From assembly GCA_030693325.1 (NCBI GenBank), contig JAUYAV010000011.1:1368-65367 (forward strand): 64,000 nt of DNA, in the 5' to 3' direction. Source of the DNA: a bacterium (GTDB taxonomy: Bacteria > Patescibacteriota > Minisyncoccia > UBA6257 > MFKM01). Each line of letters begins with the position of its first letter. The first letter of the stretch is position 1. Below, piece after piece: positions 492 to 59,253 of this stretch. Under the pieces are notes generated by a model, which did not search any database, was not told where the DNA came from, and worked only from the letters and a program-made list of their open reading frames with translations. Made by a program: the position numbers and the translations under genes.

Positions 492-1184
492 ATGAAAAAC
501 AAAAAGATTATTATTGTTTTGGCAATTATCGGCGTCATATTGGCGGTCTTAATCGGCGTTTATTTCCTATTTTTTCAGAAAACCGCGCAACTGAATTTGA
601 ACAACACGGCGGAAGAGACCGCGGATAACGCAACGGAAAATCAAACACCGACAACGAATCAAGGAAAAACAGAAAATGGCATTGTAACAGATAATCAGCC
701 CAGCCCCGAACAATCTCAAAATAAAATAATAACCGATGATTTTTCCATTAATCTTCCTCCGGGCTGGTCAAAAACCGAAGCCGCGGCCGGGGTTTCGGCA
801 ATGGCTTTTGACACGAATGAAATCATAAAAGATTCCGCGGCCCAAAAAATTAATTTCAAAAGTTATTTGGCGGTGGTTTTTGACGCGCTTCAGGGAAAAA
901 CTCTGGATGAATACCTGCAGAACCTTAAAAACTCGCTTCTGCAAACTATTCCGAATACTGTTTTCACTAAAGAACAGGATATGACAATAAGCGGCAAACT
1001 CGGCCATGCAATGGAAGTGGAACTTTCTCAACAAGGAGTAAATTTCAAAATTTTGACGGTATTCGTCAAGGATGAAAAAGAAGAAAATGTCTGGATTATA
1101 ACTTTCAACACGATTAAAAGCAGTTGGGATGGATATAAAGAATCTTTTTATAACACCGCGAATAGTTTTGTTTTGAAAAAATAA
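492..1184 (+). CDS. hypothetical membrane-anchored or secreted protein (N-terminal TM helix, then polar T/N/Q-rich linker)
   Basis: 230 aa ORF; N-terminus KKIIIVLAIIGVILAVLIGVYFLFF is a signal/anchor. Confidence 0.5.
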   Translation: MKNKKIIIVLAIIGVILAVLIGVYFLFFQKTAQLNLNNTAEETADNATENQTPTTNQGKTENGIVTDNQPSPEQSQNKIITDDFSINLPPGWSKTEAAAGVSAMAFDTNEIIKDSAAQKINFKSYLAVVFDALQGKTLDEYLQNLKNSLLQTIPNTVFTKEQDMTISGKLGHAMEVELSQQGVNFKILTVFVKDEKEENVWIITFNTIKSSWDGYKESFYNTANSFVLKK

Positions 1185-1303
1185 TTACCTCAGGGTTATC
1201 CACAATCCCACCGCGCTGTTTATTTAATGGATTTTTGCTATACTTAAATCAGTGAACAAAAAGGTCGAAAAAATATAATTTAGAAAATTAAAATTAAAAA
1301 ATT

Positions 1304-5105: not shown

Positions 5106-5424
5106 TGAGTTCATAAACATAATTACGGTAATTGCCGTAATTACAGTAATTACTGTAATTTTTATGAATTGAACGGTTTGAATCCGAGGATTATGACATC
5201 AATCACGGCGGTTATAGAAAGTAATTTCTATATTCCAATAGTTTAATTAATTTAGCTAACTAATATCGGTGGAACCCTAATTGATGATTAGGGCAATACC
5301 GAGGGAATTCTTTATAAATTAAAGAAGCCCGTAGAGACTAAGCGTTAGCCTCCGCCAAAATTTTGTAAAAAAATGGGCGGATGAAGATATAGTCCAATAC
5401 ACTTAGTAATAAGTGACCAATATG
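5106..5424 (+). mobile_element. ORF-less group I intron in 23S rRNA at the I-CreI/I-CeuI-type site (exon CCGU|CGUGAGACAGG, about E. coli 2593-2596)
   Basis: exon homology breaks after gggttcaaaccgt and resumes at cgtgagacaggttggtctctatc; the 3' part has the group I P7/P3 signature ggcggatgaagatatagtcc; intron ends in G and the upstream exon in U. Confidence 0.7.
5121..5160. repeat. tandem array of the 8-bp palindrome GTAATTAC (9-bp period) inside the P1/P2 region of intron 1, embedded in a larger hairpin at 5097..5180
   Basis: aattacggtaattgccgtaattacagtaattactgtaatt; same array at 7511..7550 and 17545..17584. Confidence 0.8.
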
Positions 5425-6738: not shown

Positions 6739-7521
6739 ATGACCCCTCGCTTGGTTAAACAACTGCTTTACGGCGCTTTCTATTTTTTAATAATATTTAT
6801 TATTTTTTGGCTGATTTATATTTTATTTTTGAAACCCGCGCCCACTTGTTCCGATGGACATCGGAATCAAAACGAAATCGGCATTGATTGTGGCGGATTT
6901 TGTCCGTCCTGTGAATTAACCCAATTGAAAAATTTGGCGGGTGATTGGGCTTTAGTTTTGCCGGCTGGAGAAAACGGGATAACGCTGTTGGCTGAGATTA
7001 CTAATCCCAATTTGAATTTCGGGGCTGAAAGTTTTTCTTACCAATTCAAAATCATCGGCCCTTTCGGCTTACTGAAAACCGTTGGAGGTCAGTCATCTAT
7101 TTACAGCGGCGAAATAAAATATTTAATAGCAACCGCCGTTCCGGTTAATCCTCAAGACGCAAAACGGGTGGAACTGGAAATATCTGCCTCCAGTACTGTT
7201 TGGCAATCGCAGGAAAAAATGCCCAAACCTGATTTAGCGAATCCCTCTCATCAAACAGTAATTTCAAACGGAAGCGTAATAGTGAAAGGTATTATTAGAA
7301 ATAAAAGTCCTCTTTTAATATCTCAAACAAAAATCATAGCCCTTATTTATAATTTTGATGGAAGCCAAATCCTAAACGCGTCTTACACAACCTTAGCTGG
7401 CCTCAAAGGGGATGAACAGCGGGCCTTTTCCATTGGATTCCCGAAAGGCGATTGGACCAAAAAAATAGATACAAACAGAACCAAGATTTTTATTGAACCC
7501 CAAATTACCAAATTACAGTAA
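6739..7521 (+). CDS. hypothetical membrane-anchored protein with a Cys-rich segment
   Basis: 260 aa ORF; N-terminal TM FYFLIIFIIFWLIYILFL; CSDG...CGGFCPSC. Confidence 0.5.
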   Translation: MTPRLVKQLLYGAFYFLIIFIIFWLIYILFLKPAPTCSDGHRNQNEIGIDCGGFCPSCELTQLKNLAGDWALVLPAGENGITLLAEITNPNLNFGAESFSYQFKIIGPFGLLKTVGGQSSIYSGEIKYLIATAVPVNPQDAKRVELEISASSTVWQSQEKMPKPDLANPSHQTVISNGSVIVKGIIRNKSPLLISQTKIIALIYNFDGSQILNASYTTLAGLKGDEQRAFSIGFPKGDWTKKIDTNRTKIFIEPQITKLQ

Positions 7522-7550
7522 TTACAGTAATTGCCGTAATTACGGTAATT
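7511..7550. repeat. GTAATTAC tandem palindrome array overlapping the TAA stop of the upstream gene
   Basis: aattacagtaattacagtaattgccgtaattacggtaatt. Confidence 0.8.
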
Positions 7551-7558
7551 AAATTTTT

Positions 7559-8623
7559 ATGTTTAAGAAACTTGATTGGTGGCTTATCGGCGCTTTGATT
7601 TTTATGGCCGCGGCCAGTTTAATATCGCTTTCGTCTACCAAACCGGCGCTTTTTCAAATCCAACTTATTTGGTACGCATTGAGCTTTTTGATTATTTTTT
7701 TTGCGGCAAAAATTAACTGGCGTTGGCTTATAACCCAAAATTGGTTTTTGCTGTCTTTCTATTGGCTGACGATCATTTTATTGATTGCCGCCTTTTTTTT
7801 CAGGCCTATCCGAGGCGCCCAAAGCTGGTTGATAATCGGAAATTTCCAGTTTCAGCCATCGGAATTGGCAAAAATTTCCCTGATTCTTATTTTCGCCAGT
7901 TTTTTCTCGCGCCGTTATCTTGAAGTTTCATTGATTAAAAACATAGCCGCTTCATTTTTTTATTTTTTTATTCCGGCGGCGCTGGTAGCGCTTCAACCGG
8001 CTTTGGGTATGGCTATAATTTTTTTCGGTATTTGGTTCAGTTTTTTGATAGTAAGCGGCTTGAAATGGCAGAGGATTTTCGCCAGTTTTTTAATTTTTAT
8101 TTTGGTATTTTCTTTTCTTTGGATGACTTTTCTGAGGCCCTACCAGAAAGAAAGGGTTTTGGGATTTATCTTTCCGGACCGGAATCCTTTGGGAACGAAT
8201 TATAATGTCATTCAGTCAAAAATCGCCATCGGTTCGGCGGGATTATTCGGAAAAGGCTTCCAGCAGGGGACGCAAAGCCGGCTGGGTTTTCTGCCTGAAG
8301 CCCAAACCGATTTTATTTTTTCCGCTTTCGTGGAAGAATGGGGATTGGTCGGCGGCCTTCTTTTGATTGCCGCTTTTTTGCTGATTATTTTCAGAATAAT
8401 TAAAATTGGCATCAAATCGGAAGGCAACTGCGCCAAATTTATTTGTTTGGGCGCCGCTATCGCCCTCGGTTCGCAATTTTTCTTTAATATCGGTTCTTGT
8501 CTGGGGCTTTCACCGGTGGTGGGGATAACTTTTCCTTTTTTCAGTTACGGAGGATCTAGCTTATTGACTAACGCTTTGCTCATCGGTATAATACAAAATA
8601 TTGCAATTGAATCCTCGTTTTAA
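7559..8623 (+). CDS. SEDS-family peptidoglycan glycosyltransferase (RodA/FtsW)
   Basis: 10-TM ORF with SEDS motifs QPSELAKISLIL, LPEAQTDFIFS, FSYGGSS. Confidence 0.85.
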   Translation: MFKKLDWWLIGALIFMAAASLISLSSTKPALFQIQLIWYALSFLIIFFAAKINWRWLITQNWFLLSFYWLTIILLIAAFFFRPIRGAQSWLIIGNFQFQPSELAKISLILIFASFFSRRYLEVSLIKNIAASFFYFFIPAALVALQPALGMAIIFFGIWFSFLIVSGLKWQRIFASFLIFILVFSFLWMTFLRPYQKERVLGFIFPDRNPLGTNYNVIQSKIAIGSAGLFGKGFQQGTQSRLGFLPEAQTDFIFSAFVEEWGLVGGLLLIAAFLLIIFRIIKIGIKSEGNCAKFICLGAAIALGSQFFFNIGSCLGLSPVVGITFPFFSYGGSSLLTNALLIGIIQNIAIESSF

Positions 8624-17339: not shown

Positions 17340-17546
17340 ATGAATAAGAAACAGTGTTTTTTTTGTTCCCAAAATTTAAAAGACGTTGATTATAAAGAGA
17401 TTGAATTACTCCGGCGTTTTGTGTCCGGCCAAAGCAAAATCATTGACCCGCGATATTCCGGCATCTGCGCCAAACACCAGAGAAAACTGGCGCAAGCGAT
17501 AAAAAGAGCCCGGTATTTAGGATTATTGCCGTTTGTTTCAAGATAA
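17340..17546 (+). CDS. rpsR: 30S ribosomal protein S18
   Basis: CFFC...DYKEIELLRRFVSGQSKI...RKLAQAIKRARYLGLLPF. Confidence 0.9.
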   Translation: MNKKQCFFCSQNLKDVDYKEIELLRRFVSGQSKIIDPRYSGICAKHQRKLAQAIKRARYLGLLPFVSR

Positions 17547-17584
17547 TTACAGTAATTACTGTAATTACCGTAATTACGGTAATT
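17545..17584. repeat. GTAATTAC tandem palindrome array overlapping the rpsR TAA stop
   Basis: aattacagtaattactgtaattaccgtaattacggtaatt. Confidence 0.8.
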
Positions 17585-17593
17585 GAATAAAAA

Positions 17594-18124
17594 ATGTCTT
17601 TCGATTTTTATATTTTTCAAGCTTTCCATAATTTAGCCAATAAGTCTAATTTTTTTGATGGGCTGATTGTTTTTTTGGCCGGCTACCTCCAGTATGTTTT
17701 ATTAGCTTTGGCGATTTTTCTGTTGCTTGCGAAAATAAAAGATTGGCGCCATCAGCTTTATATCGTTTCGGTTTTTCTACTTTCGGCTATTATCAGCCGG
17801 GGATTGATTACGGAAATTATCCGATTTTTCTATCACCGATTAAGGCCATTTTTGGCTCTCAATCTTACGCCCCTAGTCAAAGATTTCAGCGGCTCTTTCC
17901 CTTCCGGCCATATGACTTTGTATTTCGCTCTGGCTTTAACTATTTTTTTGATAAGCCGAAAATGGACCTGGTTTTTTGTCGCCAGCGTTATTTTGATGGG
18001 CCTGGCAAGAATCGCCGCCGGCGTTCACTGGCCTTCGGATATTATAGGCGGAATTCTAATTGCTATTATCAGTTATTTTATTGTCAAAAAAATTCTTCCC
18101 TCAAACAATAAAACCGCCAATTAA
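17594..18124 (+). CDS. PAP2-family membrane phosphatase (undecaprenyl-diphosphatase or PgpB-like)
   Basis: PAP2 motifs RLRP, PSGH, ARIAAGVHWPSD. Confidence 0.8.
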   Translation: MSFDFYIFQAFHNLANKSNFFDGLIVFLAGYLQYVLLALAIFLLLAKIKDWRHQLYIVSVFLLSAIISRGLITEIIRFFYHRLRPFLALNLTPLVKDFSGSFPSGHMTLYFALALTIFLISRKWTWFFVASVILMGLARIAAGVHWPSDIIGGILIAIISYFIVKKILPSNNKTAN

Positions 18125-18226: not shown

Positions 18227-18278
18227 TCCTTTTTAATTATAACGCATAAATTTTAACAGCCAACTCGCGAAATTCATA

Positions 18279-18423
18279 GCCAAACCAAACTTGTCTGAGA
18301 AAATATCCCGCAGGCACTGAAAGATTGGTTTCGCCGTAGGCGAATTTCAGCGCCGAGGGAAAAGAAAATTTTGCCGCTGGAGCAAAATTATTCTGGTTTT
18401 CGAAGGCAAGTTTGGTTTGGCTA
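18279..18423 (+). repeat. copy A of a ~145-bp structured repeat family (16-bp terminal inverted repeat AGCCAAACCAAACTTG, conserved cores, variable internal hairpin)
   Basis: direct comparison with copies at 20663..20801, 43333..43476 and 57606..57748. Confidence 0.85.
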
Positions 18424-18489: not shown

Positions 18490-19299
18490 ATGGCCCGCGT
18501 TATTGCAATCTGTAATCAAAAAGGGGGAGTCGGAAAAACAACCACGGCGATGAACTTGGGCGCTTATTTAGCCGCTTTGGGACGGCGCTGTCTTTTGGTT
18601 GATTTTGACCCCCAAGCCAACGCCACTTCCGGTTTGGGGATAACGCCGCCACAAGAGTCAGTTTACACCGCTTTGATGAGCGGTCTAATCCCCAGCCATT
18701 TGATCAGAAGAACCGCCATTTTCGGCTACGAAGTTCTGCCGGCTTCCCAGGATTTAGCCGGCGCTTTGGTGGAATTAATTTCTTTGCCCGAGCGGGAATA
18801 TCAGTTAAGAAAAACTATCAATCAACTCCGGCATTTATACGATTTTATATTAATTGACTTGCCGCCCTCGCTTAATCTTCTGACTGTTAACGGGTTGATA
18901 GCCGCCGATGAAGTTTTGATGCCGATTCAATGCGAATATTACAGTTTGGAGGGGATAGGCCAGCTTTTAAAAACTATTGACCTTATTCGCGAAAATCTCG
19001 GCTATAAATTAAACGTGGCGGGTGCGGTTTTAACGATGTATAATAAAAAAGAACGGCTTTCTCGGGAAGTGGTTAAAGAAGTTAGAAGACATTTTCCTTA
19101 TCATGTTTTTAACTCTGAAATACCCCGAGCAGTCGCTTTGGCCGAAGCCCCAAGTTTCGGCAAACCCATTATTCTTTACGCTCCTAACACCCAAGCGGCT
19201 CGGGCTTATCTGCTTTTAACCAAAGAAATCATCAGCCAACAAGAGAAAGGCGCAAATAGTCAATTCGCTAATCAAGTTTTTGGTAACCTAATAACATAA
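18490..19299 (+). CDS. parA: ParA/Soj chromosome-partitioning ATPase
   Basis: deviant Walker A KGGVGKTT. Confidence 0.9.
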   Translation: MARVIAICNQKGGVGKTTTAMNLGAYLAALGRRCLLVDFDPQANATSGLGITPPQESVYTALMSGLIPSHLIRRTAIFGYEVLPASQDLAGALVELISLPEREYQLRKTINQLRHLYDFILIDLPPSLNLLTVNGLIAADEVLMPIQCEYYSLEGIGQLLKTIDLIRENLGYKLNVAGAVLTMYNKKERLSREVVKEVRRHFPYHVFNSEIPRAVALAEAPSFGKPIILYAPNTQAARAYLLLTKEIISQQEKGANSQFANQVFGNLIT

Positions 19300-19309
19300 T
19301 TTTTATAAT

Positions 19310-20344
19310 ATGCTCGGACGAGGTTTAGAATCTTTAATACCACGGAAAGATAATAAAGAAACGCCGGAAACCGAACAAAAAAATGCGTCTTCGGCGTCGG
19401 CGCCGGCTTCGGATTTTTTTTCATCCGATAGTCCGGAACTTAAAAAAGATTTAGCTGGTGTCTTACCTAAGCCGGAAGAAAATTTGAAATTAAACATCCA
19501 AGAACCTGCGCCGAAAAAAGATTTTCAGGAACTCCCCAGAAAACATCAGGAAGCCATATTTTTGATTGAAGTTGATGAAATCAAACCCAATCCTCATCAG
19601 CCAAGGCGCCATTTTGACGAAGAATCATTGAAAGAATTAGCCGCCTCCATTCAGGAATTCGGCATTCTCCAGCCGCTTCTCGTTTCCAAAATTGAAGAAG
19701 AAACCGAAAACGGCACCAAGGTAAGCTACCAATTGATAGCCGGTGAAAGAAGGTTTATGGCCGCCAAAATGCTCGGCCTGGAACGGGTGCCGGCAATTAT
19801 TAAAAAAATTGACCTTGAAACCAATAACCTGGAAATGGCGATCATTGAAAATATCCAGCGTGTTGACCTCAATCCGATAGAATCAGCCCGCGCTTTTGCC
19901 AAACTCCAGGACGAATTCCGCTTAACCCAGAGAGAAATCGCCCAAAGAGTGGGAAAAAGCCGGGAAGCGGTAGCCAATACTTTGCGGTTATTAAGCTTGC
20001 CCTCAAATATCCAGGATGCCCTGGCCCAAAAGAAAATAAACGAAAGCCAGGCCAGGATGCTTTTAACCGTCAGTGATTTAAACCAACAACAAGCGCTTTT
20101 TCAGGAATTAATAAACGGCGGCCTCAGTGTCAGAGATTTACGGGAAAAAATAAATCCCGAAGAAACAACCGGCCGTACCGAAGACCCGGAAAGTAAATAT
20201 ATGGAAAACCGGCTGGAAGAAGCGCTCGGCACTAAAGTCAATATCAGTAAAAATCAAAATAAAGGCAAAATCGTCATTAAATTTTTCTCACCGGAAGAAC
20301 TTGACGCCATTATCAAAAAAATCTGCCAGCCAGAGTCAGAATAA
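19310..20344 (+). CDS. parB: ParB/Spo0J partition protein
   Basis: ParB box LIAGERRFMAAKMLG; HTH; low-complexity N-terminus. Confidence 0.9.
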   Translation: MLGRGLESLIPRKDNKETPETEQKNASSASAPASDFFSSDSPELKKDLAGVLPKPEENLKLNIQEPAPKKDFQELPRKHQEAIFLIEVDEIKPNPHQPRRHFDEESLKELAASIQEFGILQPLLVSKIEEETENGTKVSYQLIAGERRFMAAKMLGLERVPAIIKKIDLETNNLEMAIIENIQRVDLNPIESARAFAKLQDEFRLTQREIAQRVGKSREAVANTLRLLSLPSNIQDALAQKKINESQARMLLTVSDLNQQQALFQELINGGLSVRDLREKINPEETTGRTEDPESKYMENRLEEALGTKVNISKNQNKGKIVIKFFSPEELDAIIKKICQPESE

Positions 20345-20630: not shown

Positions 20631-20662
20631 TTACAAAACTTTCCTGAAAAGAAATTCAGGAG

Positions 20663-20801
20663 CAAACCAAACTTGTCTGAGAAAATATCCCGCAACCCCG
20701 ACGGGCTGGGTCTCGCCGAAGGCGAGCCGTCGGGGCGAGGGCAAAGAAAATTTTGCCGCTGGAGCAAAATTATTCTGGTTTTCGAAGGCAAGTTTGGTTT
20801 G
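20663..20801 (+). repeat. copy C of the 145-bp structured repeat family
   Basis: same termini and cores as copy A; different but still base-paired internal hairpin (ccccgacgg...ccgtcgggg). Confidence 0.85.
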
Positions 20802-20834: not shown

Positions 20835-21248
20835 TTAATATCTAATCTTTTTAATCTTATAAATTATTTTTATCGGGGAATTGATTTCTATTTCATCGGA
20901 AACTTTGTGATTCAGGAGCGCTTTGCCTACCGGCGACTCCGAAGATATTCTTCCTTCGCTGGGACTGGCTTCCAGTGTTCCCACGATTTCATATTCTTTA
21001 ATTTTACCATCGGAATTTTCCAGGGTAACAGTGGCCCCTAAATTGACGGTATCTTGTTTTTCTTTAGAAGGAATTTTGATAAGTTCGGCGTTTTTAAAAA
21101 CGTATTCCAGTTCCGCTATTTTAGATTCCGACAAATCAAAATTTTCCTCGGCTTTGGCCAGCCGGATTATCTTTAAATTCTTTAAATCCTGGTATTCTTT
21201 TTTTATCCTTTCCAGTCCTTTTTTAGTTAAATAAATTTTTTCTGACAT
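20835..21248 (-). CDS. greA: transcription elongation factor GreA
   Basis: N-terminal coiled coil; C-terminal FKBP-like GATVTLE...YEIVG...SPVGKALL. Confidence 0.85.
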   Translation of the reverse strand: MSEKIYLTKKGLERIKKEYQDLKNLKIIRLAKAEENFDLSESKIAELEYVFKNAELIKIPSKEKQDTVNLGATVTLENSDGKIKEYEIVGTLEASPSEGRISSESPVGKALLNHKVSDEIEINSPIKIIYKIKKIRY

Positions 21249-21489
21249 ATATAGTTTATATTAAAAAACCTCCTTGGTTTCGGAGGTTCATCAGGTTTTT
21301 TATTTTTGTTTTTTATTTTTGGTTTATCCTGTTGAATCTCCGATGTAGGCCTTTGGTCGGGGTAATGACGCCGCCAAAAACCAAGCCGCGCATATAGCAG
21401 CCAGCGTGAAGATTCCAAAGATTGATTTTTGCTATTTTCTGACTCATTTTTATCTAATTTAATTATAGGCGGGCAAGAAAGGTTGTCAA

Positions 21490-21620
21490 CCCCGTTAGAA
21501 ACTGACTTAGAATTCCCTATTTTTTGTGTAAAACACTAATTTGACAAATAAATCAGATAAAGACAATGGTATAAGAAAAAATTACTCAAGTAATTTTTTC
21601 TTCAGAGGTTTCTAACGGGG
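21490..21620. repeat. ~130-bp AT-rich element bounded by inverted repeats CCCCGTTAGAAAC / GTTTCTAACGGGG; contains a TGgTATAAG extended -10-like box
   Basis: related element at 26627..26755. Confidence 0.6.
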
Positions 21621-21822
21621 GCAAGCGAGAACAAACAAAACCCCTCCGACTTGCGTCGGAGGGGAAACAGAATGGTTTTTCTTAGATTGGATAATATTGA
21701 TCCAACACAGAAAAACAATCACTCACTTAAAATTAAGTATAGCGTAAATTTCATAGAAAGTCAACCCCAATTTTCACCCCGTAAGATAAACCCTCGCAAC
21801 AGGCGCGAAAGGATAGACCTGC

Positions 21823-21862
21823 GTTCCCTCACTGATATACTTAAGTATATCAGTGAGGGAAC
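21823..21862. repeat. 40-bp perfect palindrome gttccctcactgatatacttaagtatatcagtgagggaac (core GATATACTTAAGTATATC)
   Basis: same core with different, still complementary flanks at 26281 and 26455. Confidence 0.85.
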
Positions 21863-22224
21863 TTATTACCCGGTGGCGGCGGTGAAAGTGCGGAGAGACT
21901 AAAGGAAGGGGAAATAACCATAGAAGACAAGAAATTCTATGAGGGATTTTTTGAGGAAATCGGGGAAGAACTAAGGAAATCAAAGGGAATGGGAGAGGGG
22001 AACAAAAAGCAGGATTAAATTATAGGCGGTAGGCTGTCCGCGCTAAAAGGCTTTGAGGGCAGATTCGTGGATGAGACGGCGATGAGTTTTGGGCTACCTA
22101 TAGATTCTAATTTCTCTTACTTGATATAGCCGCGAGCAAAGATTAAAATGGGCGGATAAAATCCCCAAAACTTTGCTTTAATATCGGAGGGATAATACTG
22201 TAAGAATTAATCTAGTATGAAGTA

Positions 22225-22247
22225 CTATCGAGGTTAAACCTCGATAG
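22225..22247 (-). terminator. hairpin ctatcgaggttaaacctcgatag immediately after the pilin-like gene stop
   Basis: palindrome read directly; position. Confidence 0.5.
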
Positions 22248-22273
22248 TCGGTAATCAGACATTCGTTTGCTCC

Positions 22274-24913
22274 TTAATTTGCCGCTTCATAAAAAAATTG
22301 GCCATAAGAATATTTATCTCCAGTAGCAGCAAAAGAACTACCATCCATATCTTTATTGAGAAGTATAATCGCTCCCCCTCCATTAGTTATATCTATTATT
22401 GCAATACGAGAAGCAGTATCATAAGTCCGCCCAAATGCCATTGAATTGGATGGCATTGAAATTGTGTAAGGAACTGTGAAGGATGTGACTGTACTATTGC
22501 TTACTCCAGTTAATTTATATTGAACAAACACTGTTTTTCCAATTTTCTTAGTCCAAATATATCCGACTGGAGTAACCCAACCTACCTTCGTAGAAATAGC
22601 AAAGTAATCCGCCCACACACCTTCTTCCGCCGGTTTCGGGCTAAACGCAAACGGCGTTGAGCCTTCTACTACCATACATCCGTCAAGGTAAGCAGTTACA
22701 GTCGTTCCAGCACCAAAAAAGATATAAGGACCAAAATTAGTTGAACCTCCATTATTAGACACCAGATGCGTAACAGTTAACCTTTGCCAAGTTGAATCTC
22801 CTGTATGGTAGGGTGAATAGTCTGCAATACCTGACCCAAATTCGTAAGCGACAACTCTTAATCTATCGGCTACATTACTCCAAGCCCAACAACCCATCGT
22901 TACTGTTTTACCTCTATAAGCCGCTATCCCCATAAGCTGATACAACCCATTAAAGTTTGCACCAGTCATTTTCGCAGAGTATGTTCCTAATTTAACAGTT
23001 GTTGATTCTCTAGATACAGCATCTCCACCAAATACCCACCCATCAGGGGCCGCACTTGTTCCTGCTGACCAGTTCTCAAAGTTGCCGTTAGAGAGGAGAT
23101 TGGTGGGGTTCATATTAGAGGCGTTCCAATTAATATTTCCACTTGCATTCACATTGCCAACATTCAAATCACTGGCAGTTATCACGCCGTAAGGCGCGGC
23201 GGGCGGAGTGAAATTGGAAGTCCAGCGGGCGATGCCTTTGGAGATGCGGAGTTCGTCGAGATAGCCGTTAAAATATCTAATTGAGCCACGCCATCCTATG
23301 GTCCAGTTACCTGTAAAATCAGGTATAGAATACGAAGCTGAAAAATCTCCAGTTGCTACCTGTATGCCATTGTAATACATTTTAAGATTATCTCCGTTAC
23401 GAACAACAGCAATGTGATACCAAGTATCTGCAACTATGGCTGTATCGGAAATAACATTTATTTTAACAACGCCTCCTTCTACAACCAAAAACCTAAATTT
23501 ACCCAAATCTGGACTCGTATTTCCATCTATAACTATAAGATTAGCTCCATCATTATACTGACTCCAAATAGGGGCATAATCATTTAGTGTTCCAGTAAAT
23601 CTCACCCAAGTATCAATAGTAAAATTCCCCGTTCCAAAAGCCCAATCTGCGGAATCTGGAACAGTAAGATAATCCGTGGTTCCGTTGAATAAGCCGCTCT
23701 TGGAACCAAGCTTGTATTGAGCCGTGGTTTGGGTGGCAGAGCCGACAGCGGTAACGGCTTTGCCGGTGGCCGAATCACTGAAGGAAGTTCCTGAACTCTC
23801 CATATGAAGCAATAACTTGTTGTAGCTATCTGTTGTCTGCAATCCTTGAGAAGCGTTTATCAATCCAGCAACGTCTAACATGAAACCTGGGCTCGCCGTC
23901 CCGATGCCGACGTTGCCGCCGTTTGGATTTAACGATAAATTATGATAAGCGCCAAGAGTTGCTCTGTTGGTAGATTGTATCCAGCCAGTAGGTCCACTTC
24001 CGTAATATCCAAAATCCATAACACCGTTATTTAATCCTTGCCCTATACGAAAACTTCCTGTTTGTGTTGAGCCAGTTGTTGCCGGAAGTCCGTTATCTCC
24101 TAAAATGTCTAATTTTAAACCCGGGTTCGCCGTCCCGATGCCGACCTTGCCGGCGTTGGTATTGTAGATATTGGTGGAGGAAGCGGCCCAACCAACGCCC
24201 AAATCAGCCCAGGAGCCACTCTTATAACCCCGGAAAGCATTACTCGCGGTGTTGTAGTAGATAGACCCGTTCTGGGCTCCGGCCACGGGGTCGATAGTCA
24301 ATTGTCCCACGTTAAGAAGATTAGAAATGTTTACATCTTTCCATTTGTAAGTGGCATCACCCAGGGAAAAAGAATTGTCGGCGTTGGGAATCAAACTATC
24401 GTCAAAGGTGGCAGCGCTCACTCTGCCGATGGCTATTTTGAGAGCTCGCGTTATCTGCTGATAGGGATTCTGGCTGTTATAGGTCAAAGCCAGGTTGATC
24501 TGGACAATGGCGTGGGCGTCGGGGTTCTCATACTTGGTGGCCTGGAACTGGGAAACCTTGACCTGGCTGTTGGTCAGAGGGGCGATGGCTCCGGTTCCCT
24601 GTTTGAGGTAGATGCCGTTAGCATCGGAGGAAATGATGGTGGGGTCTAAAGAGGAGGAAGCCATCCTCAAGACCAAACTGGACGAAGCGACTCCGGCCGG
24701 ATTTTCAATGTTGGCGCTTTCTCTGACCAACCTTTGAATAGTGGATTGGACAAAAGCCAACTGCTGGGTGAGCTCGGAATCAGCCGAGGTTTGGGTCTGA
24801 ACTCTGGTGAAGGTGATGAGGACGCCGGAAAAGACGCCGACGGAGATGGAGAAGATCACGGTATAGACTAACAATTCAATCAGAGTGAAACCTTTGTTGT
24901 TGGGGTGATCCAT
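22274..24913 (-). CDS. giant type IV pilin-like protein with lectin-like domains
   Basis: N-terminal prepilin signal (MDHPNNKG|FTLIELLV); repeated fibre-like VGIGTANPG/VGIGTASPG motifs; a LamG/concanavalin-like domain; a CBM-like region (NLLSNGNFENW); 879 aa. Confidence 0.8.
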   Translation of the reverse strand: MDHPNNKGFTLIELLVYTVIFSISVGVFSGVLITFTRVQTQTSADSELTQQLAFVQSTIQRLVRESANIENPAGVASSSLVLRMASSSLDPTIISSDANGIYLKQGTGAIAPLTNSQVKVSQFQATKYENPDAHAIVQINLALTYNSQNPYQQITRALKIAIGRVSAATFDDSLIPNADNSFSLGDATYKWKDVNISNLLNVGQLTIDPVAGAQNGSIYYNTASNAFRGYKSGSWADLGVGWAASSTNIYNTNAGKVGIGTANPGLKLDILGDNGLPATTGSTQTGSFRIGQGLNNGVMDFGYYGSGPTGWIQSTNRATLGAYHNLSLNPNGGNVGIGTASPGFMLDVAGLINASQGLQTTDSYNKLLLHMESSGTSFSDSATGKAVTAVGSATQTTAQYKLGSKSGLFNGTTDYLTVPDSADWAFGTGNFTIDTWVRFTGTLNDYAPIWSQYNDGANLIVIDGNTSPDLGKFRFLVVEGGVVKINVISDTAIVADTWYHIAVVRNGDNLKMYYNGIQVATGDFSASYSIPDFTGNWTIGWRGSIRYFNGYLDELRISKGIARWTSNFTPPAAPYGVITASDLNVGNVNASGNINWNASNMNPTNLLSNGNFENWSAGTSAAPDGWVFGGDAVSRESTTVKLGTYSAKMTGANFNGLYQLMGIAAYRGKTVTMGCWAWSNVADRLRVVAYEFGSGIADYSPYHTGDSTWQRLTVTHLVSNNGGSTNFGPYIFFGAGTTVTAYLDGCMVVEGSTPFAFSPKPAEEGVWADYFAISTKVGWVTPVGYIWTKKIGKTVFVQYKLTGVSNSTVTSFTVPYTISMPSNSMAFGRTYDTASRIAIIDITNGGGAIILLNKDMDGSSFAATGDKYSYGQFFYEAAN

Positions 24914-26243: not shown

Positions 26244-26280
26244 GCGAACCAAACTTGCCCTCGGCCTCGCTTTGTCCGAG

Positions 26281-26318
26281 ATCTTATACTGATATACTTA
26301 AGTATATCAGTATAAGAT
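26281..26318. repeat. 38-bp perfect palindrome atcttatactgatatacttaagtatatcagtataagat (GATATACTTAAGTATATC family)
   Basis: read directly. Confidence 0.85.
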
Positions 26319-26454
26319 TATCCTCTTGATTAGAATATCGGATTTAAAGCATTAGATTAGAGTATTAGTATCGGAACAAACCCGATATTTCCTATATTTT
26401 TATTTCCTATATTTACAATATTTTCATTTATTTCCATTTTACATTTCTTCCAAC

Positions 26455-26478
26455 AGCGATATACTTAAGTATATCGCT
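26455..26478. repeat. 24-bp palindrome agcgatatacttaagtatatcgct (same core family)
   Basis: read directly. Confidence 0.8.
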
Positions 26479-26626
26479 CCGGCAACATAGACTAAGCCCA
26501 ATGTACCCGTCGCAAAGGTTTATTTTATCTCCGATGTCTATCGGGGGACCCTGCCCGCCTTCGCGGTGCCGTAGCCCCGCTTCGGTGGGCGGAAGCCCGT
26601 ACCCGTCACATAGTTATCCCCATTTA

Positions 26627-26755
26627 CCCCGTTAGAAATCCTGAACAGAAAAAAATTTCTAATTTTTATCTGTTATAACAGATAAATCAAACATAAGCTT
26701 TTAATAATTATAGATAATGCTTGCTTAATAAGTATTTATCGGACTTCTGACGGGG
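26627..26755. repeat. second ~130-bp element bounded by CCCCGTTAGAAA / TTCTGACGGGG, with internal palindromes ttagaaat..atttctaa and atctgttataacagat
   Basis: compare 21490..21620. Confidence 0.55.
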
Positions 26756-26903
26756 TTTACTTTATTTCCCGATATGATAGAATAAACCTTATAGAAAAAA
26801 GAAGAGATGGTGAGGTTGTCTCTTCATAAAATCGCTCCGATAATTATCGGAGCGATTTTTATTCCGCCTTGCTCAACGGATTAGAAATTTGTATAATTAA
26901 GGC

Positions 26904-27272
26904 ATGAAAATAAACATTAAAGCCATTAATTTGGATTTAACGCCGGCCCTTAACCAATACATAGAAGATAAAATCGGCTCGCTTTCGAAATTTCTTAAAA
27001 ATTATGAAATTGAATCAGAAATCCAGGCCCGCGTGGAAGTCGCCCGAACTACGCGGCACCATCATAGCGGCAATGTATTTAAAGCCGAGGTCAACCTTGA
27101 CCTGCCTAAAAAAATCTTAAGAAGCGTCGCCGAAAAGGAAGACATCAGATTGGCTATCAACAAAGTCAGAGACGAATTACAGCAGGAAATAAAAAAACAT
27201 AATCAAAAATTAAACATTAAAAATGATAAAAAAGCTTATAGAGAAGTTCTTAGGCGGAAAGGGCAAATATAA
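26904..27272 (+). CDS. hpf: ribosome hibernation promoting factor (HPF/RaiA family)
   Basis: MKINIKAINLDLTPALNQYIEDKIGSLSKF; about 120 aa. Confidence 0.8.
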   Translation: MKINIKAINLDLTPALNQYIEDKIGSLSKFLKNYEIESEIQARVEVARTTRHHHSGNVFKAEVNLDLPKKILRSVAEKEDIRLAINKVRDELQQEIKKHNQKLNIKNDKKAYREVLRRKGQI

Positions 27273-29772: not shown

Positions 29773-30129
29773 TTGATTATGGTTATTAGAATAGTAAAAA
29801 CTACAATTAAAAAATCGGAGCTTTTGGAAATAGCAAGTGAAGGATTCGGCGATATTGTTAAAGCGGTTGTAGACATTGGGCAAGGAATTATGGCTGTTGG
29901 CGGAGAACTTCACGCCGATGAGGAAGTTTTACTGACAGAACAAGAAGATTCAAAACGAGAAAATACCTGGGGAATAAACATTTATCCCCAAAAATCAGAA
30001 AACAAATGGATTGAGTTTGATTCAATGGTTAATCTTAAGCCGCATTTTGGCAATCGTTCCCGCGATGTGGAAAATCCGGAAATAAGAGAAAAAATCAGAG
30101 ATATCGTCAAAAAATTAATTACCGTTTAA
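29773..30129 (+). CDS. hypothetical small protein (resembles DUF5674-type proteins)
   Basis: GIMAVGGELHADEE...WGINIYP; family assignment from memory only. Confidence 0.45.
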   Translation: MIMVIRIVKTTIKKSELLEIASEGFGDIVKAVVDIGQGIMAVGGELHADEEVLLTEQEDSKRENTWGINIYPQKSENKWIEFDSMVNLKPHFGNRSRDVENPEIREKIRDIVKKLITV

Positions 30130-30152
30130 ACCTAAGTACAATCAATTGGACT
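30124..30152. terminator. hairpin cctaagtacaatcaattggacttaggg (same family as 49608..49632)
   Basis: read directly; overlaps the stop of the preceding gene. Confidence 0.5.
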
Positions 30153-30191
30153 TAGGGTAATGGTTTTAAATATTTTAAAATATTTTCAAGA

Positions 30192-31464: not shown

Positions 31465-32585
31465 AGATAGCTTTAGCGCATGATTATTTAAACCAGTGCG
31501 GTGGAGCGGAAAACGTTCTGAAAGTTTTAGCCGAAATTTTTCCCGAAGCGCCCATTTATACTCTTTTCTACGACGAAAATAAAACCCGGAGTTATTTTAA
31601 AAACCGCGTCAAAAAAACCAGTTTCCTTGATTTTGGAATCGTCAGGAATCATCATCGGGCTTTTATCCCTTTACTGCCGTTGGCCAGCAGCAATTTAAAG
31701 ATTGAACCTGAATATGATTTGGTTATATCTTCCAGCGCCGGCTATGCCAAAGGTTTTAATTCCAAAAACGCCTTCCATATTTGTTATTGCCATACTCCGC
31801 TCCGCTATGCCTGGGAGGAAAATTATCTTCAAGGATTGGATTTATTCCATATACCCTTATTAAAAACTTTGGCTAAACCAGTACGCGCCGCTTTAAGAAG
31901 CTGGGATAAAAAAGCCAGCCGCCGAGTGGATGTATTTATCGCCAATTCTTATTTTATCGCCCAAAAAATCAAGAATTTCTATAATCGGGAAGCCGAAGTA
32001 ATCTATCCGCCGATTGATTTGAAAAAATTCTATCCCGAACCCTCTCAAAAAACCGGTGATTATTTTTTGATGGTAGGCCGACTGCTTCATTACAAACGTT
32101 TTGACCTCGGCATTGAGGCCTTTAATCAACTAGGGCTTCCTTTAAAAATAGTCGGTGAAGGTCCGGAACTTCAAAAATTAAAATCAATGGTTAAATCTCC
32201 TTTGATAGAATTTTGCTCTTATATTGAGAACCTGGACGAGCTCCGGAAAATTTATAGCGGAGCTAAAGCTTTAATATTCCCCCAGATTGAGGACTTTGGG
32301 ATGGTGGCGGCCGAAGCCCAAGCCTGCGGCTTGCCGGTAATAGGCTATAACACCGGAGGAGTTAAAGAGATTATTAAAGAAGGGAGAACCGGCTTATTAT
32401 TTAACGAGCAAACGCCGGAAGCCTTGATAAAGGCAGTTTATTTATTTGAAAAAACTGATTTTTCCAAATCGGAAATCATTGAAAATGCCCAACGATTTTC
32501 CAAAGAAAATTTTAAATCAAAATTTCAAGAAATAATCAATAAAATAAAAAATGAAGAAAACAAAATAAATCATTTACTATTGTAA
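31461..32585 (+). CDS. glycosyltransferase family 4
   Basis: GT-B C-terminal EDFGMVAAEAQACGLPVIG...GGVKE. Confidence 0.8.
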   Translation: MKIALAHDYLNQCGGAENVLKVLAEIFPEAPIYTLFYDENKTRSYFKNRVKKTSFLDFGIVRNHHRAFIPLLPLASSNLKIEPEYDLVISSSAGYAKGFNSKNAFHICYCHTPLRYAWEENYLQGLDLFHIPLLKTLAKPVRAALRSWDKKASRRVDVFIANSYFIAQKIKNFYNREAEVIYPPIDLKKFYPEPSQKTGDYFLMVGRLLHYKRFDLGIEAFNQLGLPLKIVGEGPELQKLKSMVKSPLIEFCSYIENLDELRKIYSGAKALIFPQIEDFGMVAAEAQACGLPVIGYNTGGVKEIIKEGRTGLLFNEQTPEALIKAVYLFEKTDFSKSEIIENAQRFSKENFKSKFQEIINKIKNEENKINHLLL

Positions 32586-32614
32586 TTCCGCGATCGTGGA
32601 ATTACAATAGTAAA
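32573..32614. repeat. 42-bp near-perfect palindrome tttactattgtaattccgcgatcgtggaattacaatagtaaa overlapping the GT4 stop codon
   Basis: second copy (perfect) at 59191..59232. Confidence 0.85.
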
Positions 32615-32642
32615 TTTATAATGACTAAAGAAAACAAAAAAT

Positions 32643-41367: not shown

Positions 41368-41423
41368 TTTTGATATTTTCCAGTTTCTTGCTATAAAACA
41401 AACTCGCCATTTTTTAAATTATC

Positions 41424-41444
41424 GAGGTTCGACCTCGATAATTT
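41424..41444. repeat. hairpin ttatcgaggttcgacctcgataa (CGAGGTTNNACCTCG family)
   Basis: similar to 22225..22247 and the centre of 20401..20630. Confidence 0.5.
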
Positions 41445-43292: not shown

Positions 43293-43332
43293 AAAGCCCC
43301 GGCTTAGTCAGGACTTTTTATTTTCTTGTTGA

Positions 43333-43476
43333 GGACTTACGCCGTTGCCTTGAAGAATATCCCGCAGGCGCTGAAAGCTTGGTTTCGCCGCAGGCGAATT
43401 TCAGTGCCGAGGGAAAAGAAATCCCGACCGCTGGAGTCGGAATATTCTGGTTCTGAAAGGCAATGGCGGAAGTCCT
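43333..43476 (+). repeat. copy D (divergent) of the 145-bp structured repeat family: different terminal stem (aggacttacgccgttgcc / ggcaatggcggaagtcct) but same internal cores
   Basis: conserved atatcccgcagg, gccgagggaaaagaaa, cgctgga loop and attctggtt; stems replaced by compensatory sequences. Confidence 0.75.
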
Positions 43477-49495: not shown

Positions 49496-49607
49496 TACGT
49501 AGTAATTTTACCATAAAAAGTATAAAATTACTACCATTAGACGACTAGGCAATATCTATTAATCTAGCATAATACTGCCAAAATCTCCTTAGCTTCGCAA
49601 ATCTAAA

Positions 49608-49632
49608 AACTAAGTCCAATCGATTGGACTTA
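49608..49632 (-). terminator. hairpin ctaagtccaatcgattggacttagg overlapping the fmt stop (same family as 30124..30152)
   Basis: perfect palindrome. Confidence 0.55.
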
Positions 49633-50490
49633 GGGTATTATTTGAGGTTTTCCGCCTTCAAATTGGATTTTAGTCAATTTCAATTTTCCGTCAACCAATT
49701 CGGCCTCCAAAAGTTTTACCCGTTTTTTGTTTTGTATGGAACTATTCGCGCGAATTAGAGAAGATAACTCTTCCGGAATTAAAATAGTCCAAACTCCCGG
49801 CTCCGGATTAAGAGCGCAGATTTTTCTTTCAATAATTATAGGATCATCCTTTTCTAAATCAACATAGCCATCTTCGGTTTTGAATTTTTTCGTGTAAGTA
49901 GCCTGGCTTTCGTCTTGCGGAAGGGGAGTGATTTCGCTTTTTAAAAACTTCGGCAGGGTTTCAATCAGTAAATATCCAGCCAACTCCGCCAGTAATTGCT
50001 GTAATTTTGAAAATTGAAAATTAGAAATTGAAAATTCCAATTTTCGCTGGGCGAAAATTGGGCCATGGTCTACTTTCTCATCCACCAAAAACAAAGTGAC
50101 GCCGGTTTCGGATTCTCCGCTAAGAATAGCCGATTGAATAGGGGAGGAACCGCGGTATTTCGGCAAAAGCGAAGGGTGAACGCCGATAGTTCCCAGCCGC
50201 GACATTTCTAAAATTTCTTTGGGAATAATTTGGGCGTAAGCGGCGACGACAGCAAAATCTATTTCGCCAATTTCTAATTGGAAATTTCTAATTTCTAATT
50301 TTTCCGGCTGATAAACTTTAATCTCATATTTTTCGGCCAGAACTTTAGTCGGCGGGGGAGTGATGATTTTTTTCCTGCCAACCGGCCTATCGTGGTTGCA
50401 AACAACCGCCGCCGGCGGAAAACCGGATTTAATCAATTTTTCCAAAATAACAGCCGCAAAATCAGGCGTGCCGAAAAATGCGTATTTCAT
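49630..50490 (-). CDS. fmt: methionyl-tRNA formyltransferase
   Basis: MKYAFFGTPDFAAVILEKL...; conserved def-fmt order. Confidence 0.85.
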   Translation of the reverse strand: MKYAFFGTPDFAAVILEKLIKSGFPPAAVVCNHDRPVGRKKIITPPPTKVLAEKYEIKVYQPEKLEIRNFQLEIGEIDFAVVAAYAQIIPKEILEMSRLGTIGVHPSLLPKYRGSSPIQSAILSGESETGVTLFLVDEKVDHGPIFAQRKLEFSISNFQFSKLQQLLAELAGYLLIETLPKFLKSEITPLPQDESQATYTKKFKTEDGYVDLEKDDPIIIERKICALNPEPGVWTILIPEELSSLIRANSSIQNKKRVKLLEAELVDGKLKLTKIQFEGGKPQIIP

Positions 50491-59144: not shown

Positions 59145-59190
59145 AATATTTGATTATAAATCAAAATAAGCTTTTTGGCTATCAAGCAAA

Positions 59191-59232
59191 TTTACTATTG
59201 TAATTCCACGATCGTGGAATTACAATAGTAAA
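59191..59232. repeat. 42-bp perfect palindrome tttactattgtaattccacgatcgtggaattacaatagtaaa between murG and gltX
   Basis: second copy at 32573..32614. Confidence 0.85.
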
Positions 59233-59253
59233 TTCAAAATTCAATTTTTCTAA

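Follow-up and report, generated by a model that had tools for sequence, protein, structure and literature searches.

The stretch of DNA analyzed here, 64,000 nt of contig JAUYAV010000011.1 and hereafter called the window, raises the question of why two gene-free islands should carry copies of the same palindrome. The window comes from a genome of the Candidate Phyla Radiation (CPR)/Patescibacteria type (GC content of the window ~41%, a 23S rRNA gene with a group I intron, a LOOT RNA). We consider it probable that a ~129-aa, CPR-specific helix-turn-helix (HTH) protein of the Trp-repressor family recognizes the palindrome, extended to the symmetric 24-bp form R-S-Y GATATACTTAAGTATATC R-S-Y, as its cognate site, a prediction made from sequence. 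Three observations carry it: the association of the palindrome with the gene for this protein, the co-variation of protein and site among divergent members of the family, and the homology between one of the islands and an intact locus of the gene.

Island 1 (21249-22273) is flanked by greA (20835-21248, minus strand) and by the gene for an 879-aa pilin-like LamG protein (22274-24913, minus strand), while island 2 (26244-26903) is flanked by murB and hpf/raiA, with secA further downstream. A first-pass annotation of this DNA had described both as free of genes, and neither the listing of open reading frames (ORFs) nor Pfam searches reveal a credible gene in either: the longest ORFs are 83 aa in island 1, where Pfam recognizes neither the 83-aa nor the 69-aa ORF, and 44 aa in island 2, again without a match. 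It had also proposed an Rfam scan, which was run on the whole window at gathering thresholds and on the islands at E-values up to 10 (6S, SRP, RNase P, tmRNA, riboswitches, the raiA motif, etc.); nothing credible was found, and there is no gathering-level match in either island. Permissive scans of the islands returned only sub-threshold eukaryotic microRNA hairpin models, which reflect the palindromes.

A Palindrome That Brackets a Trp-Repressor-Family Gene

The palindrome with an invariant core that the first-pass annotation had pointed out is present as described. The core occurs exactly three times in the window (21834-21851, 26291-26308, and 26458-26475; shuffles predict 0.01), and no further copy was found there when up to two mismatches were allowed. 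The three cores are embedded in perfect palindromes of 40 nt (site 1, 21823-21862), 38 nt (site 2, 26281-26318), and 24 nt (site 3, 26455-26478), two of them thereby reaching 38-40 nt. Site 1, in island 1, is a proposed binding site of the TrpR-like protein, and its flank agrees with the CPR consensus (cACT-core-AGTg).

A scan for the 18-mer in one genome per species (596 Gb) gave matches in 52 contigs, about 32 of which belong to Patescibacteria metagenome-assembled genomes (MAGs; Paceibacterota, Wolfebacteria, Colwellbacteria, Saccharibacteria, and unclassified). Several of these MAGs have three to six exact copies each, spread over different contigs. Restriction of the core to its three places in the window had been named as a result that would speak against a functional site; the core is in fact widespread in CPR genomes, where its copies are mostly intergenic, while in other phyla they are mostly single and within ORFs, as chance would give. 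Near-copies of the palindrome are grouped in twos and threes, with a spacing of 80-420 bp, and palindromes at separate loci can have longer flanks in common, such as TTTTTGATTnAATTCCnCnCT in loci L009, L011, and L054. Among 74 distinct CPR sites, the three positions on either side of the core are symmetric and degenerate (R-S-Y...R-S-Y, most commonly ACT...AGT), which defines the 24-bp site. Past this site, arm complementarity is only modestly above background: perfect arms of at least 8 nt are found in 16 of the 74 copies, far above chance, and short arms in the other 58. The "co-varying arms" of the first-pass annotation thus exist in a minority of copies but are not general, the rule being a symmetric, degenerate 3-nt flank. 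To our knowledge, none of the operator motifs of LexA, NrdR, Fur, CIRCE, Rex, and other regulators fits the palindrome.

The strongest clue to its function is the gene that it surrounds. In four loci from the 18-mer matches, a small gene lies between two palindromes, and its product matches the Pfam family Trp_repressor (PF01371) with 41.0 (L009) and 48.9 bits (L052) for a cut-off of 27; PF01371 is also precomputed for the proteins P0001-P0020. A metagenome scan for the trpR-like gene gave four loci, and the contexts of distant members came from exact-protein look-ups. In all nine intact loci with the window's type of palindrome (type 1), the gene encodes a PF01371 protein of 117-131 aa and the upstream copy ends 8 nt (six loci), 17, 30, or 37 nt 5' of the ATG, and in eight of the nine another palindrome begins 7-11 nt past the end of the gene; the arrays comprise up to six sites in ~600 bp. 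The same layout is found around trpR-like pseudogenes in L038 and L041. A profile search of 1.84 billion representatives gave 153 clusters (50% identity) at E ≤ 1e-10, mostly of full-length proteins of 120-135 aa, and members of the subfamily share a conserved C-terminal YKG motif. By sequence profile, the closest solved structures are 3kor, 3frw, and 3g1c (YerC-like; E 1e-5 to 4e-4).

The main evidence that the palindrome is the predicted cognate binding site is that protein and site co-vary. Five divergent TrpR-like members were looked up with their loci. P0027 (L065; helix segment TLKTISF) is accompanied by GATATAC..GTATATC, which ends 6 nt 5' of the ATG, and P0040 (L068; SRTTINFVKRGF) by TGTCCAGTTAACTGGACA, with four copies upstream and one past the stop codon. 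At the locus of P0120 (L067; SSNTISKVRD), TGGTCTCATTAATGAGACCA is found 14 nt 5' of the ATG and 28 nt past the stop, with one more copy, and at that of P0169 (L069; SSNTLSYVRD), TGGTCTCGTTAACGAGACCA stands 26 nt 5' of the ATG and 3 nt past the stop. P0099 (L070; NKSTVAFVKRGL), finally, has TGTATGGTATATACCATACA 24 nt 5' of the ATG and 13 nt past the stop, again with one more copy. Five specificity classes, each with its own recognition helix and its own bracketing palindrome, can thus be distinguished (GATATACTTAAGTATATC, TGTCCAGTTAACTGGACA, TGGTCTCATTAATGAGACCA, TGGTCTCGTTAACGAGACCA, and TGTATGGTATATACCATACA), and the palindromes of the classes other than GATATACTTAAGTATATC are 18-24 bp long. 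Each type was found only in loci of its own protein class, save that the palindromes of P0120 and P0169 cross-match at the 2-mismatch threshold because they differ by 2 nt. In L067, L069, and L070, the upstream palindrome abuts, overlaps, or sits just 5' of a TATAAT box that itself lies 5-9 nt before the ATG, an arrangement in which a predicted operator would cover the core promoter of a gene with a short leader or none. The suggestion of the first-pass annotation that the palindrome is a protein-bound DNA site is thereby strongly supported, with a TrpR-family gene bracketed in every intact locus examined and divergent members carrying their own palindromes in equivalent positions.

Known relatives of the protein behave in a comparable way: 20-bp palindromes are the binding sites of TrpR and of HisR/YerC, both of which frequently control their own expression (PMC9413887). 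E. coli TrpR (trpO, aroH, and trpR operators) is likewise a small, all-helical HTH protein of PF01371 with an 18-20-bp palindromic operator centered on TTAA, an operator at its own promoter, and known tandem or multiple binding. Its trpO operator reads GTACTAGTTAACTAGTAC and its consensus TGTAcTnGTnnACnAgTACA (PMC9413887), the latter being close to the CPR class palindrome TGTCCAGTTAACTGGACA. Unlike TrpR, the CPR proteins carry at the C terminus a conserved basic tail whose last residues are YKGAQSII or YKGKGRW, and their sites stand on both sides of the gene, form arrays of up to six, and are scattered beside unrelated housekeeping genes. Tryptophan synthesis is not known in CPR bacteria. HisR (YerC/YecD; Firmicutes and other phyla) provides both the closest structures by profile and the top fold matches, and it recognizes a 20-bp palindromic motif (cacTTTAnnnnnnTAAAgtg) that is found ahead of hisR in roughly half of the genomes (PMC9413887). 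The CPR proteins differ from HisR in their motif, in having neither his genes nearby nor a coherent regulon, and in their bracketing and array layout, which is not described for HisR. The proteins would form a branch of the TrpR family of regulators that is specific to the CPR; their palindromic sites are particular to each lineage and unusual in how they bracket the gene and form arrays. No description of the sites of these proteins was found in the literature; as coverage was incomplete, the novelty is provisional.

By analogy with TrpR and HisR, a TrpR-like dimer would bind each palindrome. Occupancy of the core promoter at its own gene would then repress transcription, and such autorepression is implied by where the site lies, since it overlaps the core promoter or start region and, in most loci, ends 8 nt short of the ATG; by position alone, the site lies where an autoregulatory operator is expected in nine of nine loci (8-37 nt before the ATG). 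Additional sites of the arrays could add cooperativity or looping, and the downstream site may close the unit.

Several points weigh against this proposal. The CPR proteins score only 16-26 bits against the NCBIfam TrpR equivalog TIGR01321 and 23 bits against YerC/YecD TIGR02531, below the cut-offs of 67 and 42, respectively, and they form a subfamily separate from both. The AlphaFold (AF2) monomer has five helices, with an only moderate predicted local distance difference test score (pLDDT 70), and the top Foldseek matches, 3kor and 3frw, have probabilities of 0.91-0.99 but E-values of 0.1-0.5 and TM scores of 0.4-0.5, which is weak. The regulator gene lies outside the window, and its placement in the same genome rests on the proximity of accession numbers and on a shared sample (see below). 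Nor is there a coherent regulon: the dispersed sites neighbor tpiA, rpiB, ruvB, ileS, a GNAT gene, a DNA glycosylase gene, and others, and an all-against-all comparison of the site-flanking genes found no recurrent family save the trpR-like gene. The distance of dispersed sites to the downstream promoter ranges from overlap to more than 100 nt, and some sites lie between convergent genes, unlike what is seen in a classical repressor regulon. Finally, a dimer-binding site does not account for the long perfect arms of 16 of the 74 copies. Hairpin-templated correction of quasi-palindromes is an established mutational mechanism, and such arms could have arisen by it without selection, or they could reflect a terminator role of some copies.

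If the assignment is right, it offers a directly testable protein-DNA pair in the CPR/Patescibacteria, which have very few recognizable transcription factors and whose gene regulation is almost unstudied. At 50% identity, the subfamily falls into at least 153 clusters, and its five natural specificity variants, which tie changes of the recognition helix to changes of the operator, would provide a system for studying the evolution of HTH specificity and for binding assays on uncultured organisms.

The Probable Regulator of This Genome and a Gene-Less Relic

No TrpR-like homolog was found in the window by tblastn and six-frame hmmsearch. The proteins of the window correspond to MDP3052473-478 (186,611-nt contig), and a TrpR-like protein, P0004, is MDP3052817.1 (203,842-nt contig); both are present in Logan assemblies of run SRR13727537, and the locus of P0004 (L053) has an unusual AATTACNGT tandem repeat in common with the window. 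Because of the near accessions, the shared sample, and the common repeat, the same MAG most likely encodes P0004 on another contig. L053 has five palindromes, four with the exact core of the window and one that is off by a single base. As the window lacks a regulator gene of its own, its three sites are "orphan" sites.

Island 2 is more than a carrier of such sites. Positions 26286-26414, i.e., the second palindrome of the trpR-like locus (pal2) and a conserved spacer, match L053 198-324 at 78% (blastn, 78% over 130 nt), and positions 26458-26503, i.e., the post-gene palindrome and 28 nt, match L053 825-870 at 85% over 46 nt; blastn against L009 gives 69% over 192 nt. Site 2 is equivalent to pal2 (alignment A5: L053, L054, and L009), while the left flank of site 3 aligns with that of pal3 and its right flank with the sequence that follows pal5 (alignments A5 and A6), so that site 3 lies at the junction left by the deletion of the gene. 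Island 2 (26286-26503, plus strand) is, on these alignments, a gene-less, paralogous copy of the regulator locus, which retains pal2, 149 nt of conserved spacer, a hybrid of pal3 and pal5, and 28 nt of the conserved flank that follows the gene, and which lacks the pal3-pal5 segment with pal4 and the gene. Its divergence from L053, of more than 15%, argues against an assembly collapse. Recombination between two palindromes would have removed the regulator gene, leaving behind a promoter embedded in a palindrome that would now face hpf. This promoter-like site (TTTACA-16-TATACT, 26438-26465, plus strand), a consensus match only, has the left half of palindrome 3 as its -10 box. Its counterpart in L053 (TTTATA-16-TATACT, with TG) also has its -10 box within the palindrome and aims at the trpR-like gene; in the window, the site aims into a GC-rich patch and onward to hpf. 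The pal2-pal3 spacer additionally contains a hairpin followed by a T-run (26367-26389, plus strand), which is kept in alignment A5.

The homology among the window, L053, and L054 stops at one common point (..CCCAWTG), and the GC-rich patch (26503-26607) begins exactly at its end. As noted in the first-pass annotation, the patch contains a duplicated motif, in that it is bounded by the 9-bp direct repeat GTACCCGTC (26503-26511 and 26599-26607). The possibility that it encodes a structured RNA was considered and rejected, since its fold z-scores (-1.2 and -0.6) are not significant and it has no homolog among the collected loci. On the other side of the relic, at 26245-26280 (plus strand), lies a partial 5' end (AACCAAACTTG...) of a repeat family of the window, which the first-pass annotation had given as 145 bp and which is here ~150 nt long. 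Between the patch and hpf are a perfect 32-nt palindrome (AAAATCGCTCCGATAATTATCGGAGCGATTTT, 26828-26859), which is terminator-like on both strands, and then TGTATAAT, which is followed by 6 nt and the ATG of hpf (26889-26906, plus strand) and suggests a leaderless hpf promoter. In another MAG, an HTH_25 gene has the identical 15-mer (TATAATTAAGGCATG; a -10 box and then 6 nt and the ATG) in front of it (L054 3310-3327, minus strand), and a TATAAT 5-9 nt before the ATG is found at gatB in L008, besides the trpR-like genes of L067, L069, and L070. This suggests that leaderless transcripts may be frequent in these genomes.

Island 1 can be placed in a similar context. In L009 and L056, the gene order at the corresponding position is pilin-like gene, hairpin, palindrome array, and trpR-like gene; given this order and the toxin-antitoxin modules inserted nearby, island 1 is therefore a syntenic, rearrangement-prone site. 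It would represent a variable region downstream of the pilin-like gene where relatives keep the regulator gene and where the window has retained one site. Toxin-antitoxin modules adjoin the palindrome arrays of relatives (HicB with a broken HicA in L009, ~600-1210, minus strand; an antitoxin with ParE in L054, 1184-1635) and mark the region as a variable island.

Other Explanations of the Palindrome

It is possible, if rather doubtful, either that the TrpR-like gene together with the palindrome private to it makes up a self-contained module, able to spread and to diversify within CPR genomes, or that the role of the protein is not to sense a metabolite and repress but to act genome-wide as an architectural or insulator factor. 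The module would establish a new protein-palindrome pair in each lineage, with palindromes that seed intergenic regions, arms that grow by hairpin-templated repair, and recombination hot spots that make gene-less relics such as island 2 and break synteny; it would thus be a nuclease-free analog of the REP/RAYT system (repetitive extragenic palindromes and REP-associated tyrosine transposases). The latter also consists of short intergenic palindromic repeats whose cognate gene is flanked by the repeats. Unlike in REP/RAYT, the gene flanked here is of PF01371 and not a Y1 (IS200/IS605-like) transposase gene, and the repeats are perfect palindromes with a conserved center and variable outer arms, without a GTAG-type guide.

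We regard as unlikely the related idea that the palindromes are a dispersed, self-propagating repeat family, similar to REP or miniature inverted-repeat transposable elements (MITEs) or to a mobile cassette, of which the trpR-like unit would be the autonomous and island 2 the non-autonomous form. The protein would then serve the element, by copy control or by recruiting host recombination, and not the regulation of host genes. Such a family would fit with the bracketing of the trpR-like gene by identical inverted and direct repeats, with the coexistence of a full and an internally deleted copy in the same MAG, with the common end point of the homology among the window, L053, and L054, and with the longer flanks common to separate loci (TTTTTGATTnAATTCCnCnCT). 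It would also fit with dispersed sites that define no regulon, with adjoining toxin-antitoxin modules in relatives, and with the fact that the trpR-like gene is found in a different neighborhood in each genome (serS; recA with ParE; a ribosomal cluster; dnaG; rpe). However, the unit encodes no transposase, recombinase, or nuclease, and a 129-aa HTH protein cannot catalyze movement; neither target-site duplications nor clean pairs of empty and filled sites were found, and the co-variation of protein and site is equally expected of an ordinary regulator.

That the palindromes act as RNA hairpins, i.e., as terminators, processing sites, or stems of small RNAs (sRNAs), with variable arms selected for stem stability, is very improbable. 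Perfect hairpins of 38-40 nt are possible, and the arms of at least 8 nt in 16 of 74 copies are more than chance would give; in addition, 5' flanks are G-poor and 3' flanks C-poor, A-runs precede and T-runs follow several copies (L030, L004, and L059), a copy usually (8 of 9 loci) lies past the end of the trpR-like gene, and some copies are between convergent genes. Some copies elsewhere do qualify as terminators (L059). In contrast, a terminator scan listed none of the three window palindromes, whose core stem is AT-rich and not followed by a T-run. Copies with short arms are the large majority (58 of 74), there is no Rfam family match, and many copies are upstream of promoters. The central CTTAAG is palindromic and conserved even though it would be a loop, and a role as RNA alone does not predict that the palindrome should change in step with the recognition helix of a protein that binds DNA. 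The hairpin RNA that the first-pass annotation had envisaged for the palindrome is thus superfluous for these data, even if long-armed copies may still act in this way.

The chance that the palindrome is the parS site of this lineage, bound by the ParB encoded 1.5 kb away (19310-20344), is next to negligible: parA and parB (18490-20344) do adjoin island 1, the sites are clustered palindromes of which each genome has few, and a canonical parS (TGTTNCACGTGNAACA, up to two mismatches) was not found anywhere in the 64 kb though both genes are present, but the palindrome tracks the TrpR-like class, brackets that gene in loci without parB, and occurs on many contigs of one MAG instead of in one origin-proximal cluster.

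The cognate site of a TrpR-like regulator remains our preferred explanation of the palindrome. A phage origin was considered as well and rejected. The 18-mer has six matches in viral contigs, none of which has a trpR-like gene; in five of the six, it makes up what seems to be the long variable arm of a tRNA-Ser(GCU)-like phage gene, and the matches were judged a coincidence. In these IMG/VR contigs (L071, L072, L074, L075, and L076), the arm reads ..GGATTGCTAATCCCCC-GATATACTTAAGTATATC-CGTTGGTTCAAATCC...

Other Elements of the Islands and of the Window

A second element shared by the two islands consists of AT-rich DNA between CCCCGTTAGAAA inverted repeats, as the first-pass annotation had described. 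In island 1, it covers 21490-21620, with 13-nt arms (CCCCGTTAGAAAC, 21490-21502; GTTTCTAACGGGG, 21608-21620), an AT-rich interior with a 14-bp hairpin (21573-21602), and the extended -10 sequence TGgTATAAG (21567-21575) that had been read from the first copy. In island 2, it covers 26627-26755 (CCCCGTTAGAAAT ... ACTTCTGACGGGG); the right arm (TTCTGACGGGG) is imperfect, and the right end abuts a promoter-like site (26756-26783). Inverted pairs of CCCCGTTAGA(A/T)(A/G), 96-131 nt apart, are also found in L008, L020, L032, L054, and L059; no such pair was found in the viral contigs. The arms remain complementary just past their invariant part (AAA/TTT, ATA/TAT, and AAG/CTT). The interiors of the seven elements, with 75-110 bp of enclosed DNA, are unrelated, so that these are not copies of one mobile element, and an assignment as MITEs was rejected for want of a homologous interior among the seven. 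A resemblance to attC sites was likewise dismissed, on the basis of folding, since the interiors do not form a global hairpin and only terminal stems and local hairpins fold. One arm abuts a core promoter in four cases (TTGACA of greA; TTTACT at 26756; TTTACT of gatB in L008; TATAAT before a leaderless gene in L054), and the genes beside the elements are unrelated housekeeping genes. The elements resemble invertons, in which conserved inverted repeats of 10-13 bp also enclose unrelated, AT-rich, promoter-like DNA near gene starts. They differ from invertons in that their best promoters are just outside the repeats, no recombinase gene is nearby, and a single orientation is seen in all assemblies compared (three of one locus; window and Logan assembly, identical). 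The pairs are a second conserved intergenic element of the CPR, independent of the palindrome, and may be paired protein sites, a promoter-insulating RNA or DNA stem, or invertible segments; they share islands with the palindrome because both favor long intergenic regions. The view of the islands as landing pads for mobile repeats, put forward in the first-pass annotation, thus holds insofar as both are repeat mosaics and island 2 is a gene-less relic, but not for the CCCCGTTAGAAA elements, given their unrelated interiors.

The remainder of island 1 is a mosaic. The CCCCGTTAGAAA element abuts the greA promoter (TTGACA-16-TATAAT, 21462-21489, minus strand), which has 12 of 12 consensus matches and is followed by a putative greA 5' leader of ~200 nt (21249-21461, minus strand; fold z-score -3.6). 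Two hairpins of this leader are mutually exclusive, CGGAG...CCUCCG and a terminator-like GAACCUCCG...AAGGAGGUUUUUU: CCUCCG can pair either with the upstream CGGAG, in a long hairpin, or with the downstream AAGGAGG, which precedes a U-run. By inference only, the leader would be attenuator-like; E. coli greA likewise has a terminating leader.

A candidate sRNA of ~95 nt (about 21730 to 21630, within 21630-21766, minus strand) would form two hairpins (fold z-score -7.3), with a predicted promoter (TTGACT-17-TATACT, 21764 to 21736) and a GC-rich terminator (21664 to 21641) followed by a T-tract. This terminator is the strong minus-strand hairpin with a T-tract (21641-21664) already singled out in the first-pass annotation, which had also raised the possibility of unannotated sRNAs; one plausible candidate is thus found, but it is unrelated to the motifs that the islands share, and no conservation of 21630-21766 was detected among the collected loci.

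Beside palindrome 1 lies a decayed small ORF (21852-22020, plus strand), 79% identical over 77 nt to a stretch next to "pal6" of L054; the L054 ORF reads MSGYGGESAEKL..., while in the window its ATG is TTA and a stop codon lies upstream. It is followed by a conserved non-coding block (22021-22169, plus strand), 85% identical over 104 nt to L036 1085-1225, which is situated between the palindrome and the pilin-like gene in the window and in L036 alike, in flanks that cannot be aligned. A better consensus fold is obtained for its plus strand (-14.5 kcal/mol), with several pair-keeping substitutions, from two sequences only. An nhmmer search of the collected loci gave no more copies of this block or of the 150-nt family.

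Just past the stop codon of the pilin-like gene is a hairpin (ACTATCGAGGTTaAACCTCGATAGT; TATCGAGGTTaAACCTCGATA; 22224-22248). It belongs to a second recurrent palindrome, TATCGAGGT(N2-3)ACCTCGATA, which is found in the window at 22224-22248 and 41418-41442 and elsewhere in L009 (1184 and ~640), L053 (~45), L054 (1125), and L056 (181), often directly after pilin-like/LamG genes or beside TrpR-type palindromes. It could be a terminator or the site of another protein.

The islands were also considered as a replication origin, which was rejected because the GC skew has no origin-type switch nearby. Two Logan contigs of SRR13727537 (L063 and L064) stop inside long perfect palindromes, at window positions 21852 and 26830, and trpR-like loci are frequently at contig ends (L009, L053, and L054). 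Long perfect palindromes fragment de Bruijn assemblies, which explains assembly breaks at such sites, and the palindromes mark rearrangement-prone, repeat-rich islands.

Other repeats are found throughout the window. The ~150-nt family has four copies (18269-18419, 20651-20801, 43323-43473, and 57596-57746) and partial 5' ends at 11772, 20352, and 26245; it has no Rfam match and no copy among the collected loci. The repeat is closed by CAAACCAAACTTG...CAAGTTTGGTTTG, and an internal hairpin changes yet stays complementary (GCACTGAAAG..CTTTCAGCGC versus CCCCGACGG..CCGTCGGGG), which gives it the look of a MITE or of a structured RNA. Upstream of genes, at 5112-5173, 7502-7563, and 17536-17606, the 9-bp unit (G)TAATTACNG, itself a short palindrome, is repeated four to five times in tandem, and such arrays are shared with the contig of the TrpR-like gene (L053 10465-10504); they are possibly another array of binding sites. 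Finally, two more long palindromes, ATTTACTATTGTAATTCCnCGATCGTGGAATTACAATAGTAAAT and AAAnCTAAGTnCAATCnATTGGACTTAGGGTA, are each present twice (32572-32622 and 59190-59240; 30128-30159 and 49606-49637).

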